From the IMG/VR virus record IMGVR_UViG_2671180283_000013: a DNA stretch of 17,125 nt. One strand, written 5' to 3'. Numbering within the stretch: position 1 is the stretch's first letter; each line of letters opens with the position of its first letter. Source of the DNA: a virus (lineage: Duplodnaviria; Heunggongvirae; Uroviricota; Caudoviricetes). Positions 1 to 4,648 of this stretch are shown piece by piece. The notes under the pieces were generated by a model. The model was not told the origin of the DNA, did no database searches, and was given only the letters and a program-made list of their open reading frames with translations. The translations under genes were made by a program, and so were the position numbers.

Positions 1-2071
1 CAATGACTCCGCCAGCAGTTTCCAGATCGATAGTCTTACTAAATTCCGGTCCCATATCTCCGGTTTGCGGATCGAAAAATATTGCACCTATTGAGGTGAT
101 CGGGGCATCAGGATTTTTTCCCATGGTTTCAAGGTCGATCATTAGATGGTCACACGTCCTGCTGGTGGATGTGATTTCGTGATGACCGTTCACCTTAATT
201 GGGTGATCTGCCGTCTCGCCAGTTTCATTATCGCTATTGTGATGCTGATTGCCGCCAGTGTTCTCCTTGTGTGGATGTTCAGCGCCTTCCATTTCCTCCG
301 GATCATCTTCCTGAACTTCAACCTGATACTCTTCATCGAATGTTTCTTGGTATGTTGCGTCGCCCATCACCGCGCCACAATCAGGGCAGTTGCCGCCGCC
401 GGTCTGACCGCAGGCGGTGCAGACTTTTTCCACTTCCTGTTGCGCTACTGGTTCAGGCTGTTTCGTTTCTGGCTCGTTTTGTAACGCATTTGGACTGTTT
501 TGTTCCGCTTTTTGGTAGTTCCGTTCCGATTCATGCTGGTTCTGGTTCACAGAATCGCGGGTCTGGATCCCCTTAACCCATTTCGGATCATTCGGGTCAC
601 TAATCCCTTCAACAAATTCACCACGTGATGCAGCAAGCAACTTATCAGCGTCAGGCTGGCTGATATTGGCTGCCTGCATAATTTTGTTTACTTCGTCAGC
701 GGTAACTTTTATCGGCTCTGGTTGTTCTGAATCTTCAGCGGTATCTACATTTTGCGGTAAGCCCGTGTATGTGCCATTTTTTCGGGCAAAATATTCTTCT
801 TTTGTGATTTCAGTGGCGCCAGCAGCCAGTGCCTTATCCAGACCAGAAAGTTTGTTTGCGCGACCGTATTTTTCTCCGTCCTTATCTGCGAAGAGGAAAT
901 AGAACGGCCCCTCACGCTCTACAGATGGTTCAGCTTCCGGCGCGGTTTCATTTTTTGGGATATCAGATACCTCAGTTTCCACTGCATCAGTTTGTGTTTC
1001 TGATGACTGGAGAACATCAACAGTGCCCAGGTCTGTTTCTTCATTCTCAAACACGCCCTTTGTCGTCAGGTATTCGCAGATATATTTGTTCAGTGCTACG
1101 GGATCTTTGTGAATGTCGATCGGACGCTCACGGACAAGGCCAAAAATAGTTTGGCGGTCGTAGCGAAGGGCATCAGGCTGTTTGCGCATTGATGCCGAGA
1201 TACGCTTCCAGTCTTCGCGGTCGTTGTCGATAACTTCATTTTTTGCCCAGCGATGGATGCTGCCGTCAATGTTTCCGGCATCCACATCACCAGGCCAGAG
1301 AGCGTAGGCCAGTTCGTCATCCAGTGTTTTCCATGTCTGCTTGTATTCGCGATGAATGGCAGCAATGACCGGGCTGATTTTTCCTGTTGAATTTTCACTG
1401 TGCTGTTGATTGGTTCTGGCGCGGGCGAGATCAACAACAGACGTGTATTTTCCGGTTTCCTTGCGTTCACCTTCGCGACGTTTTTTCCAGATGCGCATCT
1501 CTGCCTGAATTTCGGGCCATTTAGCACCAGGAATACATTTATGCTTAACCCACCCAATGGCGTGCAACTTAAGCTCCGGATACATGGCGTTAACTTCTGG
1601 CATTTTCATCAACGCTTCAACGATATGTCCGTCGAATGTTGCCATGTCTTCCTGCAACAATTCCTGTGCGCTAATAACCATATCAACGGTGATGTTTTCA
1701 CATGTGTCGAACTTAACCATGACAGCGTTCTGTACTTCAGGGGCCAGCTTGTCAAAAGTGACGTTCATCGGATCGGATTCAGTCTCAACCGGGACAAAAG
1801 AAGCAGACTCCTCATCCCAGCGGTTTTCCTGCATATATTCAGCATCCCATGAATCGAGGGCAGGGCGGGGTATGCCAGGTTTATCCTCGCAGACAATAAA
1901 TTTATAAGCGCAGTCCTGAGCAGCCGGATAATGTTCCAGGAATTGCCAGTGAAATTTTGCTCGAGCACGGCGTTCGTCGCCAGCTTCAATGGCTGTGGCT
2001 ACAGCCACAGCGCCTTCTTCCCTTGTTGCCAGTTCGTCAGGAATAGCGGCGCAAATAAAGACTTTACTCAT
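1..2071 (-). CDS. Large prophage exonuclease-like protein; N-terminus at 2071, C-terminal end runs off the left edge (about 690 codons visible)
   Basis: Minus-strand frame is open from ATG at 2071-2069 to the window edge; I checked every codon and found no in-frame stop. GAGGT lies about 9 nt upstream and an in-frame stop lies just upstream of the ATG. Translation starts MSKVFICAAIPDELATREEG. It contains a C-x2-C-x7-C-x2-C motif (CTACGQTGGGNCPDCG), an acidic low-complexity linker, and a DnaQ-like Exo I motif (HLMIDLETMG) near position 120-150. Position matches the exonuclease gene of the early-left operon of Rac/Qin-type prophages (from memory). Confidence 0.8.
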   Translation of the reverse strand, partial: MSKVFICAAIPDELATREEGAVAVATAIEAGDERRARAKFHWQFLEHYPAAQDCAYKFIVCEDKPGIPRPALDSWDAEYMQENRWDEESASFVPVETESDPMNVTFDKLAPEVQNAVMVKFDTCENITVDMVISAQELLQEDMATFDGHIVEALMKMPEVNAMYPELKLHAIGWVKHKCIPGAKWPEIQAEMRIWKKRREGERKETGKYTSVVDLARARTNQQHSENSTGKISPVIAAIHREYKQTWKTLDDELAYALWPGDVDAGNIDGSIHRWAKNEVIDNDREDWKRISASMRKQPDALRYDRQTIFGLVRERPIDIHKDPVALNKYICEYLTTKGVFENEETDLGTVDVLQSSETQTDAVETEVSDIPKNETAPEAEPSVEREGPFYFLFADKDGEKYGRANKLSGLDKALAAGATEITKEEYFARKNGTYTGLPQNVDTAEDSEQPEPIKVTADEVNKIMQAANISQPDADKLLAASRGEFVEGISDPNDPKWVKGIQTRDSVNQNQHESERNYQKAEQNSPNALQNEPETKQPEPVAQQEVEKVCTACGQTGGGNCPDCGAVMGDATYQETFDEEYQVEVQEDDPEEMEGAEHPHKENTGGNQHHNSDNETGETADHPIKVNGHHEITSTSRTCDHLMIDLETMGKNPDAPITSIGAIFFDPQTGDMGPEFSKTIDLETAGGVI

Positions 2072-2164
2072 TTTGTTTTAACCTCATGACAGATTTAAGG
2101 ATGAACAAATCCCTGCCATTGCTGGCATATAAGAATGAAACCGGATATTTATTACGGAACTGTT

Positions 2165-2356
2165 TTAAAGACCTGCCGGGATTTCGATATTATCCTGGTT
2201 AATAACTTTATCGACCGGGTAACAGTTACCGGGAATTTTCTGTTCGGTTGCTGCAGTCATACACTCCTGCATTGTCCTGTGAACACTGACTGCAATATCA
2301 ACTGGCACTCCGGAAACAAGAAAAACTGTCAGAACAAGCGCAAATGCTGAATTCAT
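2165..2356 (-). CDS. ydfD: Small membrane/lysis peptide, YdfD-like, 63 aa
   Basis: ATG at 2356-2354 with AAAGGA 8 nt upstream. Start overlaps the upstream gene's stop as ATGA (translational coupling). N-terminal hydrophobic segment MNSAFALVLTVFLVSGVPV. Size and position immediately downstream of dicB match Qin YdfD (from memory). Confidence 0.6.
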   Translation of the reverse strand: MNSAFALVLTVFLVSGVPVDIAVSVHRTMQECMTAATEQKIPGNCYPVDKVINQDNIEIPAGL

Positions 2357-2541
2357 TGTGCACATCCTTTTGGCATCAGACGTAAACGAGCCAGCATTGA
2401 AACAATGCATATTTTATTTAATAGCTCCCGTTCTTGTTTTCTCTTGTTAATGGCATCTTCAGTAAATACAGAGTTACTGATAGTGACACCAATTTCAAAA
2501 CAACCTTCAGACGTATTAACGTTTGGTAATAACGTTTTCAT
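2353..2541 (-). CDS. dicB: Cell division inhibitor DicB, 62 aa
   Basis: ATG at 2541-2539 with a strong SD (GAGGA, 7 nt spacer). Translation MKTLLPNVNTSEGCFEIGVTISNSVFTEDAINKRKQERELLNKICIVSMLARLRLMPKGCAQ matches my recollection of E. coli DicB almost exactly. Sits directly downstream of the dicF sequence. Confidence 0.75.
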   Translation of the reverse strand: MKTLLPNVNTSEGCFEIGVTISNSVFTEDAINKRKQERELLNKICIVSMLARLRLMPKGCAQ

Positions 2542-2710
2542 TATCGCGTCCTCAACAATGAATTTTGTGATGCAGTGCCTGGTGCCTCCAGGTGACGTTA
2601 ACCAGTTAACAATTAACGTCGGATACAGAGAATCCACCCATAACACTGTTTTTGGTTTTAACTGTTCCGCGTGCGCTTAGCCGCATTCACCGCATCACAA
2701 AATTCACTTT

Positions 2711-2768
2711 AAAAACGGCGGCAGAGCAGTCACGGAGTAAAACTGATACCGCCAAACGTCACCAGAAA
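2711..2768 (-). ncRNA. dicF: DicF small RNA (ftsZ translation inhibitor), includes 3' terminator hairpin and U-tail
   Basis: Reverse complement of 2711-2768 reads TTTCTGGTGACGTTTGGCGGTATCAGTTTTACTCCGTGACTGCTCTGCCGCCGTTTTT, which matches the DicF sequence as I remember it. It ends in a GC-rich stem plus T-run and lies between the upstream minus-strand ORFs and dicB, as in the Qin dicB operon. Ends are approximate. Confidence 0.75.
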
Positions 2769-3027
2769 ATTGATAACAGAGGGCGTTGCAGCGGGGTTGT
2801 CACTTAAGCGTATGGTCAACCTGACAACTCGGTGTCCTCAACGGGGAAGGAATAACCCCGCCATACTTACCGCCGCGCCATTTTGCGGGTTGCCACAACC
2901 GGAAGCGCACGGTCGAATTAAATTTAACGACACCGTACAGTGAGACGAACTTCGCCGTGCGCTTTCGTGTTGTGTGCCTGCTTTTAACCACGTCAGGCGA
3001 GGTGGTATCCTTAAAATCACCACAGTT

Positions 3028-3603
3028 TTAAGGATTCATTAAGCAATGTCGCAACCACCAATAAATCCGCTTAAGAACATGAAAATTGATTACTGGTATA
3101 AAGCGCTTACAGTTGTTGGCGCTGCGTTGTTTGTCTTTAATGGAACGTCTTTTTTTGACAGATATCCCGTTGTTCCATTGGGTTTTTTGTCCTCCGGCAT
3201 CTTTTTTATTGGTTTGGGGGAGTGGATTAATCACCCTCTCAAAGTGAGATTTATTGGCCCTGGAGTTTGGACTCGTGGATATAATCGTTCTTCGTGCGCA
3301 CTCGGTATCATCTTCGACATACTTGGTTGTTTCCTGATTGTTACAGGAGTCGTCAAGTTCTTCTGATGTAAAACCGCAAATGGGGCACGTAACGGGAATT
3401 TTGAAAAGCGTTTCTCCGGGTTCCAGAACAAAATTTTCTGCGGTCTGATTTTGCTTCTCATATTTGTGCTCCGCGTCATTGTGAGAGCACATTCTTATTC
3501 TGAGTGCCTGTTTAAACTCACTGAAGCTGAGAGCTTCTTCGCCTTCGGCAAGGCCTTCGAAGTATTCTTCGTAAGCCTTTTCCATGATTGTGTCGAAATC
3601 CAT
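3028..3603 (-). CDS. Acidic small protein, YdfB/YdfC-like by position; only the first 40-85 codons look like real protein, the rest of the open frame is probably antisense read-through
   Basis: ATG at 3603-3601 lies 1 nt after the ydfA-like stop (TGAtATG coupling). N-terminus MDFDTIMEKAYEEYFEGLAEGEEALSFSEFKQALRIRMCSHN is protein-like. No in-frame stop occurs until 3028, so the frame overlaps the plus-strand membrane gene at 3046-3366. The true 3' end is unresolved. Confidence 0.35.
   Translation of the reverse strand: MDFDTIMEKAYEEYFEGLAEGEEALSFSEFKQALRIRMCSHNDAEHKYEKQNQTAENFVLEPGETLFKIPVTCPICGFTSEELDDSCNNQETTKYVEDDTECARRTIISTSPNSRANKSHFERVINPLPQTNKKDAGGQKTQWNNGISVKKRRSIKDKQRSANNCKRFIPVINFHVLKRIYWWLRHCLMNP
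3046..3366 (+). CDS. Small integral membrane protein, 106 aa, embedded in opposite orientation in the early-left operon (same position as sieB in lambda/Rac; family unverified)
   Basis: ATG at 3046 with AAGGA about 11 nt upstream. Three clear hydrophobic helices (YWYKALTVVGAALFVF, VVPLGFLSSGIFFIGLG, CALGIIFDILGCFLIVTGVV). The overlapping minus-strand frame is K/R/N-rich, as expected for the antisense of a membrane-protein gene. Confidence 0.55.
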   Translation: MSQPPINPLKNMKIDYWYKALTVVGAALFVFNGTSFFDRYPVVPLGFLSSGIFFIGLGEWINHPLKVRFIGPGVWTRGYNRSSCALGIIFDILGCFLIVTGVVKFF

Positions 3604-3604
3604 A

Positions 3605-3760
3605 TCACTCACCTGAGTTTCTTTCCAGCCAGCGACGGGCACCATTTTCGGTTTTAAACGTTTTGCTTTTGGTATACGTCATCGCGGTGAACGTGCCGTC
3701 CTGGTTGGGGAACACGCCACATACCAGAGATTCGCTGTTGCCAAGATCGATAGTATCCAT
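3605..3760 (-). CDS. ydfA: YdfA/YdaF-like small protein (DUF1391-type), 51 aa
   Basis: ATG at 3760-3758. Translation MDTIDLGNSESLVCGVFPNQDGTFTAMTYTKSKTFKTENGARRWLERNSGE resembles Qin YdfA / Rac YdaF from memory. First gene downstream of dicA on the same strand. Confidence 0.6.
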   Translation of the reverse strand: MDTIDLGNSESLVCGVFPNQDGTFTAMTYTKSKTFKTENGARRWLERNSGE

Positions 3761-3840
3761 GCTGACCTCATTTCCCCTTAACGCTGGGGTAGCGGAACTG
3801 TTTGCTGAGAACACCGTGCGGTGTGTTGATGCAAATAAGA

Positions 3841-3854
3841 TTAGCCATGGCTAA
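3841..3854. promoter_or_regulatory. Perfect 14-bp palindromic operator candidate TTAGCCATGGCTAA, left of dicA; related inverted repeat ATGTTA-N4-TAACAT at 3877-3892
   Basis: Read directly: the sequence is identical to its reverse complement. Related palindromes flank dicA on both sides, in the untranslated region upstream of the ydfA-like gene. Confidence 0.5.
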
Positions 3855-3926
3855 CATATAGGTCAAGTGATTTTGTATGTTATGGCTAACATGATTGATG
3901 TGGTAAAAGATAACTCATTGATGATG

Positions 3927-4334
3927 TTATCTTTTATTTGTCCGCTGACGGGCTTTTAGTAATTCTTCAAAGAGTTTATTGAAGTTTTTTACTCGAGCTC
4001 GCATTTCGGCGAGCTGGGTATCCTGTTCTGATTCTGGCAGTGCATTAAACAGCTCAAGGAGCTCTAGTTCTTTGGGGGATAAGGCAACTGGCTTCTCAAC
4101 AGGTGGTGTTGGTTGCTTGTCTTCATCGCCAAATAGAATCCATGTTGGTGAGCATTGCAATACTTTGCTGAGGGCAAAAAGGTTCTTCCCTGTAGGTTCA
4201 CTATCATCCCGTTCCCATTGTGATACAGACACATGGGAGATTTTCAGGGCTTTAGCAAGAGACCTTTGGGTGTGTTTGAGGTTTTTCCGACGATACCTAA
4301 TGCGTTCGCCGATAGTTAAATTTTTTGTTTCCAT
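3927..4334 (-). CDS. dicA: DicA repressor (HTH, Cro/CI family), 135 aa
   Basis: ATG at 4334-4332. Translation METKNLTIGERIRYRRKNLKHTQRSLAKALKISHVSVSQWERDDSEPTGKNLFALSKVLQCSPTWILFGDED... contains a canonical helix-turn-helix and matches E. coli DicA from memory. Divergent from dicC. Confidence 0.85.
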   Translation of the reverse strand: METKNLTIGERIRYRRKNLKHTQRSLAKALKISHVSVSQWERDDSEPTGKNLFALSKVLQCSPTWILFGDEDKQPTPPVEKPVALSPKELELLELFNALPESEQDTQLAEMRARVKNFNKLFEELLKARQRTNKR

Positions 4335-4386
4335 AGTTAGCTAATGCTAAATCGTATTGACTATGTTTTTGTTAACATCTATTTTG

Positions 4387-4400
4387 TTAGTCATGACTAA
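4387..4400. promoter_or_regulatory. Perfect 14-bp palindromic operator candidate TTAGTCATGACTAA in the dicA-dicC divergent intergenic region; also TTAGCTAA (4337-4344) and TGTTAACA (4370-4377)
   Basis: Read directly: identical to its reverse complement. Shares the consensus TTAG-YCATGR-CTAA with the site at 3841-3854. Lies between the divergent repressor and cro-like genes, where operators are expected. Confidence 0.55.
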
Positions 4401-4417
4401 CAATAAAGGTGTTTTAA

Positions 4418-4648
4418 ATGCTTAAAACTGACGCTCTTTTGTATTTCGGTTCAAAAACAAAACTTGCACAAGCAGCAGGTATTCGTTTGGCTTCGCTTTA
4501 TAGCTGGAAAGGGGATTTAGTTCCCGAAGGTCGCGCGATGCGTCTACAGGAGGCATCTGGCGGGGAGCTTCAGTATGATCCCAAAGTTTATGATGAATAT
4601 CGTAAGACGAAGCGGGCGGGGCGGTTGAACAATGAAAATCACTCCTGA
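4418..4648 (+). CDS. dicC: DicC (Cro-like regulator), 76 aa
   Basis: ATG at 4418 with AAAGGTG upstream. Translation MLKTDALLYFGSKTKLAQAAGIRLASLYSWKGDLVPEGRAMRLQEASGGELQYDPKVYDEYRKTKRAGRLNNENHS matches DicC from memory. Divergent from dicA. Confidence 0.8.
   Translation: MLKTDALLYFGSKTKLAQAAGIRLASLYSWKGDLVPEGRAMRLQEASGGELQYDPKVYDEYRKTKRAGRLNNENHS

Follow-up and report, generated by a model that had tools for sequence, protein, structure and literature searches.

Does a minus-strand reading frame that stays open through the whole antisense of a small membrane-protein gene belong to a gene of its own, or is one of the two frames a shadow of the other? The question is raised by IMG/VR virus record IMGVR_UViG_2671180283_000013 (Caudoviricetes), a stretch of 17,125 nucleotides, referred to here in its full length as the window. 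The window represents the immunity-left region of an E. coli lambdoid prophage of the Qin/DicB type. Comparison with homologous loci suggests that the small membrane-protein gene and the open reading frame (ORF) opposite it are a real two-strand pair that most annotations overlook. Taken as a whole, we read the locus, with rather more confidence than doubt, as a phage-mobile two-strand cassette that holds a real nested antisense pair, in which the distal part, or tail, of the minus-strand gene is probably kept open so that ribosomes can cross it. The frames in question are as follows.

3046-3366, plus strand: plus ORF, the nested membrane-protein gene, 106 amino acids (aa), ATG start.
3028-3603, minus strand: minus ORF, here ydfB'::X, 191 codons from the ydfB ATG (3601-3603) to a stop at 3028-3030.
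3028-3645, minus strand: longer version of the minus ORF, 205 aa from an upstream in-frame ATG (3643-3645), often called by gene finders.

The plus ORF sits entirely within the minus ORF, on the opposite strand and codon for codon in register. With starting coordinates that differ by 18 (3046 minus 3028), both frames share triplets, so that every plus codon, once reverse-complemented, is read as a minus codon, and stops in the minus frame arise only from the plus codons TTA, CTA and TCA. All three are absent from the plus gene of the window, which has 10 Leu and 6 Ser codons. A preliminary description of this DNA had given both ORFs at these positions, with the minus frame open to 3028, and this was confirmed. 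From local codon usage, ~3.2 antisense stops would be expected in the window and the probability of finding none is ~0.03, so that the open frame by itself is mildly unlikely. Such a value is in keeping with the view that the minus ORF is a chance 'shadow' ORF, and that nothing at the locus is real apart from the plus gene and a truncated ydfB pseudogene; since the absence of three codons suffices, long in-register antisense frames are common, and PHANOTATE and Prodigal over-call them.

Judged by its homologues, the plus ORF is a real gene under strong purifying selection. Its product was described beforehand as a convincing three-helix membrane protein, and homologues, invariant columns and the structural model agree with this. 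AlphaFold2 (AF2) gives a model with a mean predicted local distance difference test score (pLDDT) of 83.6, with transmembrane (TM) helices predicted at residues 17-32, 42-62 and 85-105 and a beta hairpin at 65-79, and the grand average of hydropathy (GRAVY) is +0.64. There are 60 homologues in a set of 5.8 billion proteins, and a profile search brings the family to 486 representatives at E<=1e-3; full-length homologues at 34-58% identity occur in Yersinia, Herminiimonas, Reinekea and metagenomes. The motifs IDYWYKA and GLGEWINHPL are invariant in the alignment, with invariant columns at Y16-W17-Y18-K19-A20, G56, G58-E59-W60 and N62-H63-P64. Differences between prophage lineages cluster at the third position of plus codons: the window and lineage L022 differ at 11, 7 and 36 sites by plus codon position 1, 2 and 3, with 31 plus-synonymous against 5 minus-synonymous single changes, and lineages L142 and L146, whose plus proteins are 98% identical, differ at 3, 1 and 22 sites. 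Scans against Pfam, NCBIfam, PADLOC and PHROGs gave no informative family for the plus protein (at E<=1, Pfam returned only two insignificant hits, TMEM238 and DUF7103), and Foldseek searches of the confident model against PDB and BFVD gave no match at E<=1e-3.

The same pattern bears on the converse view, that the minus ORF is the sole real gene and the 'membrane protein' its hydrophobic shadow. Hydropathy complementarity between sense and antisense is a property of the genetic code, and the protein cluster of the minus ORF (P0061, 1798 member sequences) is larger than that of the plus protein (~280). However, the changes fall at plus position 3, which is minus position 1 and not minus position 3, and the invariant plus motifs are also kept in homologues whose antisense frame is filled with stops. 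Among 125 window-type copies examined, the plus ORF is unbroken in every one, whereas the minus ORF is broken in three haplotypes. We give this view hardly any credence, as the codon-position pattern across lineages refutes it.

What, then, is the minus ORF? Comparison with phage Tritos, which has a K-12-like arrangement, resolves it into ydfB codons 1-34 fused in frame to a separate conserved gene, which we call X and which travels together with the membrane-protein gene.

3502-3603, minus strand: ydfB-derived part, codons 1-34, MDFDTIMEKAYEEYFEGLAEGEEALSFSEFKQAL, with its ATG one base past the ydfA stop.
3367-3492, minus strand: X N-terminal domain, which does not overlap the plus gene, MCSHNDAEHKYEKQNQTAENFVLEPGETLFKIPVTCPICGFT, with its own ATG (3490-3492) inside the replacement module described below.
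3031-3366, minus strand: X tail, 112 codons, the reverse complement of the membrane-protein gene and of 5 codons of its 5′ leader.

Residues 1-34 of the minus ORF are identical to the first 34 of Tritos YdfB, and at the in-frame junction (3502/3503) YdfB ..FKQAL runs on as RIRMCSHND.... A full-length YdfB of 42 aa (PHROG 2061, ending ..KQALSSSAKSNG) was considered and rejected, as only residues 1-34 are present. In the PHROG scan the YdfB N-terminus matches PHROG 2061 and the minus ORF matches PHROG 35040 over its full length; the 205-aa version is annotated as a coding sequence (CDS) in phage HannyBb (PHROG 35040). Scans of the minus protein and of X from eight other lineages against Pfam, NCBIfam, PADLOC and PHROGs otherwise gave no informative family. 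The Prokaryotic Genome Annotation Pipeline (PGAP) labels the locus 'protein YdfB, incomplete, missing C-terminus', a pseudogene fragment, which speaks for the shadow-ORF view. A decayed fusion of ydfB- and ydfC-like genes, one of two alternatives offered in the preliminary description, is rejected: ydfC, which is KilR-like, is absent, and ydfB is joined to X instead. Separately, in some Rac-like prophages the X frame continues past the point where it normally stops and joins kilR in frame, so that ORFs of 245-280 codons result (e.g. L157, 2674-3513, minus strand; protein P0068).

By comparison across lineages, the N-terminal domain of X (~40 aa) is under purifying selection. It contains a CPICGF knuckle (3370-3387) and ends exactly at the plus-gene stop codon, and a Met lies 34-42 codons upstream of the overlap in each lineage. 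The peptide is kept in lineages whose plus proteins are only 51-58% identical, reading GETLFKIPVTCPICGFT in the window, GEILCRIPVVCPVCGFT in L022, GEDICFIPTECPICGFV in L009 and NEEIFSIPIECPICGFR in Yersinia. Two versions of the domain are found. Type B reads ..IPxECPICGF; type A reads ..PGSVxIDxxTGxVxLIGW and is carried (as ..ERKFPGSVVIDPATGGVSLIGW) by Pantoea, by phage mEp390 and by a large number of IMG/VR prophages. There are CPxCG forms in L138, L145 and Roseateles as well. For most type-B pairs, synonymous changes outnumber non-synonymous ones in the minus frame (e.g. 9 versus 2 and 7 versus 1), and changes lie mostly at third positions of minus codons. Standalone short homologues of X were sought with the type-A N-terminal domain, and frameshifted variants were all that came up.

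The evidence on the rest of X comes from its absence or presence in diverse loci, which were found after the viral-contig alignment was re-ranked with a distant first sequence, the first scan having returned near-identical copies. The X-bearing group was defined solely by the presence of the X domain motif. This motif is in every case in register with the plus gene, with its end 1-7 nt from the plus stop, and the X stop lies 5-12 codons past the plus-gene start. Antisense stops number zero in 23 of 23 distinct loci with the motif, across GC contents of 0.41-0.64 and down to ~40% plus-protein identity, where 1.5-5.5 stops would be expected per locus. Among the 35 loci without the motif, 23 have 1-17 antisense stops and 12 are open, the open ones being mostly high-GC loci or broken or variant copies of X. 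For comparison, sieB in the same slot (GC 0.40) has 10, 10 and 23 antisense stops in its three frames. Counted over 17 overlap-group lineages, plus-gene codons ending in A are used as follows.

CTA: 0/175.
TCA: 0/59.
TTA: 0/43.
ACA: 29%.
GCA: 30%.
GGA: 28%.
CCA: 17%.
CGA: 20%.

The complements of stop codons thus total 0/277, against 7-30% for other A-ending codons in the same group; in family members without X they are used freely (CTA 26%, TCA 34%, TTA 68%). When each alignment-column and codon state is counted once, as a discount for shared ancestry, A-ending CTN and TCN codons are 0/88 against 21% in other four-fold families and TTA is 0/21, with P ~8e-10 for CTN and TCN, a value that is approximate because the lineages are phylogenetically related. 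On this comparative evidence, TTA, CTA and TCA are specifically purged from the plus gene, and openness of the tail is selected.

A chance shadow ORF is therefore strongly disfavoured by the homologous loci, and we regard it as very improbable. The view can point to members without X that are high in GC and open by chance (L023, L132-L135), and to a tail without sequence constraint. Against it stand the 23 open loci, reaching ~40% plus-protein identity and GC 0.41, the codon-specific avoidance that survives collapsing, an N-terminal domain that is under purifying selection and always in frame with the open antisense, and the operon-style junctions of X with its neighbours described below. As the N-terminal domain appears to be coding and no stop follows it, translation of X would have to run on across the antisense of the plus gene. 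The comparison of homologous loci favours the other alternative in the preliminary description, a same-locus antisense overlap. Full-length conservation of the minus protein, named there as a refuting observation, is borne out in part: the frame is open over its full length, while as a protein it is conserved in its N-terminal ~40 residues only.

The tail itself drifts freely. A test for synonymous-site constraint, expressed as codon identity at conserved plus residues over the permutation expectation, was essentially null, with a ratio of 1.07 against 1.01 in loci without X, and the tail diverges at ~10 times the rate of the plus protein. For X, AF2 gave a model that is mostly at pLDDT <50, from a shallow alignment. 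The tail is hydrophilic (GRAVY -1.09), because it is encoded antisense to, and in register with, a membrane protein. Within these comparisons selection against stops is seen and the amino-acid sequence is unconstrained, which implies that either the passage of ribosomes or a product defined by composition only is what matters.

The second of these options is a serious competitor, though we think it unlikely: the tail product would matter, X of ~150-190 aa needing a hydrophilic, probably disordered C-terminus as a spacer, a solubility tag or a degradation tag, for which length and composition count and sequence does not, and stops would be purged since truncated X is non-functional. The stop-purging signature expected is identical, the tail is uniformly hydrophilic (though this is automatic from antisense coding) and predicted by AF2 to be disordered, and no closely coupled gene follows the X stop in the window, which weakens the argument from coupling there. 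Yet synonymous-site constraint is undetectable and divergence fast, the length of the tail is dictated by the nested gene alone, and the tight start and stop junctions in several type-A phages fit coupling equally well.

These junctions are informative as to where X sits. In type-A phages the stop of a cro-like gene lies at, or a few nucleotides from, the start of X, and in five type-A lineages the next gene begins -8 to +22 nt from the X stop; in one of the phages (L158) the gene after X looks CII-like from its sequence. The annotation of the cultured phage mEp390 has X as gp39, flanked by cro (gp38) and the CII-like gp40, and leaves out the nested plus gene. The record of mEp390 gp39 also carries the note 'similar to Bcep176 gp33'; gp33 of Burkholderia phage Bcep176 (L205, 2366-2830, plus strand) is on the membrane-protein strand and gp39 on the opposite one, so the note joins opposite-strand ORFs of homologous DNA. 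The cassette is always antisense within a repressor-controlled early operon, and this, together with the packing of X between cro and the next early gene, favours a bridge role for the tail. In the window, the in-frame joining of X to ydfB codons by mosaic exchange means that ribosomes from ydfA and ydfB would read into X.

Returning to ribosome crossing as the preferred explanation, we propose the following. The cassette would move between temperate phages. Its plus strand would contribute a gene for a three-TM protein that opposes the repressor-controlled early operon, as sieB does, and this nested gene, probably with a promoter of its own, would be expressed in the lysogen, convergent with lytic transcription. 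Its minus strand would contribute an early-operon gene, X, with a conserved N-terminus of ~40 aa followed by a frame through the whole antisense gene. Selection would remove TTA, CTA and TCA from the plus gene while the amino acids of the tail drift; the in-register frame is the cheapest to keep open, because synonymous choices of Leu and Ser codons suffice. Ribosomes that cross the embedded gene may keep the early mRNA translated, so that Rho-dependent polarity and decay are avoided, and their transit may also feed the tightly coupled next gene or, in the window, the dicF/dicB region downstream. Put more specifically, this may be a kind of cassette not described before, with a complete membrane-protein gene, expressed in the lysogen, concealed on the opposite strand of an early lytic gene whose tail of ~110 codons serves as a 'bridge ORF', a proposal that we put forward tentatively and hold to be somewhat doubtful in this full form.

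The elements around the start of the nested gene that bear on its expression are the following.

3003-3011, plus strand: extended -10-like motif TGGTATCCT, 43 nt upstream of the plus ATG, a candidate promoter.
3031-3035, plus strand: Shine-Dalgarno sequence AAGGA for the plus gene.
3007-3035: AT-rich inverted repeat ATCCTTAAAA / TTTTAAGGAT, covering the X stop, the putative -10 and the Shine-Dalgarno sequence of the plus gene.
3543-3562, plus strand: weak terminator-like hairpin CTTCGGCAAGGCCTTCGAAG followed by a T-rich tail, 3′ of the plus gene and within ydfB-derived codons.

At -43 to -46 the TGGTATCCT motif shows little or no variation in the five enteric lineages of type B, Yersinia among them, and it may be the promoter of the nested gene. 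Along with the operon junctions of X, this conserved motif is indirect evidence that the pair is expressed. The fold of the minus RNA around the X stop is not significant (z = -1.25), the promoter and terminator scan found one terminator-like hairpin against 1.7 expected by chance, and an Rfam scan of 2000-4500 gave only DicF and a sub-threshold STnc100, with no match inside the module.

Several observations weigh against our reading. A strict sigma-70 scan found no consensus promoter for the plus gene and did not detect TGGTATCCT. After the X stop in the window come ~490 nt of untranslated dicF leader, which weakens the anti-polarity rationale there, and the bias of C over G in the antisense RNA is modest (C/G 1.1-1.5). 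With no amino-acid constraint and no confident fold, the tail product may be irrelevant, and the relatedness of the lineages tempers the P values. Some copies of X are also defective: in L021 a nonsense codon takes the place of the Gly in CPVCG, stops interrupt X in L004, L119 and L130, and frameshifted type-A variants occur. X is thus dispensable, at least in cryptic prophages. Finally, RefSeq PGAP annotates neither complete ORF in most carrier genomes inspected; its sole inspected call of the plus ORF (WP_127712993.1) is in a strain with a stop in the minus frame, in X.

The locus owes its form to a mosaic exchange in a dicBF-type operon. The neighbouring features in the window are listed below.

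3605-3760, minus strand: ydfA (DUF1391), which precedes ydfB'::X in the dicBF-type operon.
3927-4334, minus strand: DicA-like repressor.
2986-3502: mosaic replacement module of 517 bp, defined by BLAST against phage Tritos, carrying X and the nested gene.
2716-2767, minus strand: DicF small RNA (Rfam RF00039, 72.5 bits), downstream in the same leftward operon.
2353-2541, minus strand: dicB.
2165-2356, minus strand: ydfD.
Plus strand of the window: cro-like and YdaT genes.

The dicBF operon of the Qin prophage reads ydfA-ydfB-ydfC-dicF-dicB-ydfD (PMC5069750). The window likewise holds ydfA, the 5′ part of ydfB, DicF, dicB and ydfD, with a DicA-like repressor adjoining, but has the module of X and the membrane-protein gene instead of the 3′ end of ydfB and ydfC. 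BLAST homology between Tritos and the window is confined to 2601-2985 and 3503-3798, which sets the breakpoints at 2985/2986 and 3502/3503, and the module stands in place of 396 bp in Tritos that comprise the last 8 codons of ydfB plus its stop and all of ydfC. Similarity to YdfC or KilR was not found in 2986-3502, ydfC being part of what was replaced. Other phages have ydfC or sieB in this slot. The module was found in 805 of 5426 complete E. coli genomes (~15%), mostly at >=99% identity, and many E. coli chromosomes match the 751 bases around the locus at 100% identity. At the ydfC position Tritos has a gene (L005, 1460-1678, minus strand; unnamed in the record) for a KilR-type protein, MQKREPVIIAPDYTDDELYEW..., a sequence that recurs as the C-terminal portion of the fused L157 and P0068 ORFs; L021 and L022 have a PF27398:KilR gene at the ydfC position.

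A number of further observations concern the surroundings. In the DicF region, 129 bp (2650-2778) are 100% identical to the 254-kb 'Aeromonas phage AP1' record MT713136.1, which looks like contamination or a chimeric assembly in that record. The sub-threshold STnc100 match (2509-2718, minus strand; 33.5 bits against a gathering score of 47, E=5.9e-5) spans the DicF-to-dicB leader and the start of dicB. The GC-rich dicF leader between the module and DicF (2770-2985) is 94% conserved relative to Tritos, and gene finders place small minus ORFs there, among them two that are CDS in HannyBb; in the Rfam scan no family covered it. As to the plus gene elsewhere, a decayed and heavily frameshifted copy is found in Shigella flexneri CP182557.1 (L045, 3001-3348). 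Non-phage chromosomal homologues (L012, L013, L015, L017, L019) lie among small hypothetical genes, with neighbours that are not shared and include a DUF5677 protein, an AAA_14/DUF4143 ATPase and a ParD-like gene; near these five homologues we found no conserved partner hinting at function.

Among known systems, the closest in position is sieB of lambda, P22 and Rac, whose convergent neighbours are ydaF/ydaG. Both genes occupy the same mosaic slot, are oriented against the early-left operon and encode a small membrane protein next to the immunity repressor, and phage vB_EcoS-666R9 carries sieB between the same flanks. The sieB position assigned to the plus gene in the preliminary description thus holds, as Rac-like phages carry sieB there in the same orientation. 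The identity of its product with SieB, which that description had proposed to check, is rejected: there is no significant Pfam hit and no sequence similarity to the SieB of vB_EcoS-666R9 (BLASTP E=0.54), and SieB has 162-203 aa against 106 aa here. Moreover, the convergent minus gene stops at the 3′ end of sieB, with an overlap of just 4 nt, and the antisense frames of sieB hold 10-23 stops. The plus gene would accordingly resemble a sieB-type lysogen-oriented moron by position without being a member of the SieB family.

Phage morons are independently transcribed extra genes, and lambda OOP RNA is a short non-coding antisense RNA opposite cII. The present pair would share with them an extra gene in a phage operon and an antisense transcript opposite the early mRNA near cro and cII; morons lie between genes, and we know of none inside an ORF that is kept open across it. 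Leader peptides and translational-coupling ORFs are cases in which translation rather than the product matters, and under the proposed mechanism selection would likewise act on ribosome transit and not on the peptide. They are short and not antisense, whereas here ~112 codons are open across a complete opposite-strand gene.

Antisense overlapping genes have been reported from E. coli O157:H7, among them ano, nog1, laoB and pop (PMC5960689, PMC9927249, bioRxiv 10.1101/2020.11.18.388249), the last study excluding phages. As in those cases, each locus here has two opposite-strand coding frames of which standard annotation suppresses one. The O157:H7 examples are mostly short ORFs within long annotated genes and are supported mainly by ribosome profiling (Ribo-seq) or phenotypes; here the nested gene is the strongly conserved one, the evidence for the pair is comparative, and the enclosing ORF shows stop purging without amino-acid constraint in phages down to ~40% identity. 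We did not find the pair described in the literature on antisense overlapping genes, including these three reports.

Long antisense overlaps in bacteria and phages are contested, and the usual evidence for them is low-level Ribo-seq signal. The evidence here is evolutionary and codon-specific: a nested gene is synonymously recoded in every lineage, which keeps the opposite frame open, and relatives without the partner are rich in antisense stops. The comparison defines two uncharacterised protein families, one of them a small three-TM protein with IDYWYKA and GLGEWINHPL in a sieB-like position, and exposes an annotation gap, in that PGAP omits the 106-aa protein in most inspected carriers and phage annotators call the opposite strand only. 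Carried by ~15% of complete E. coli genomes and by mEp390, a phage in culture, the cassette is a tractable model for why an overlapping frame persists without amino-acid conservation, and for how phages insert opposite-strand cargo in early operons. If the tail is indeed a bridge ORF, an antisense moron could sit inside an operon, be it in the dicBF leader or between cro and cII, and cause no Rho-dependent polarity, and lytic transcription might be coupled to silencing of the nested gene.

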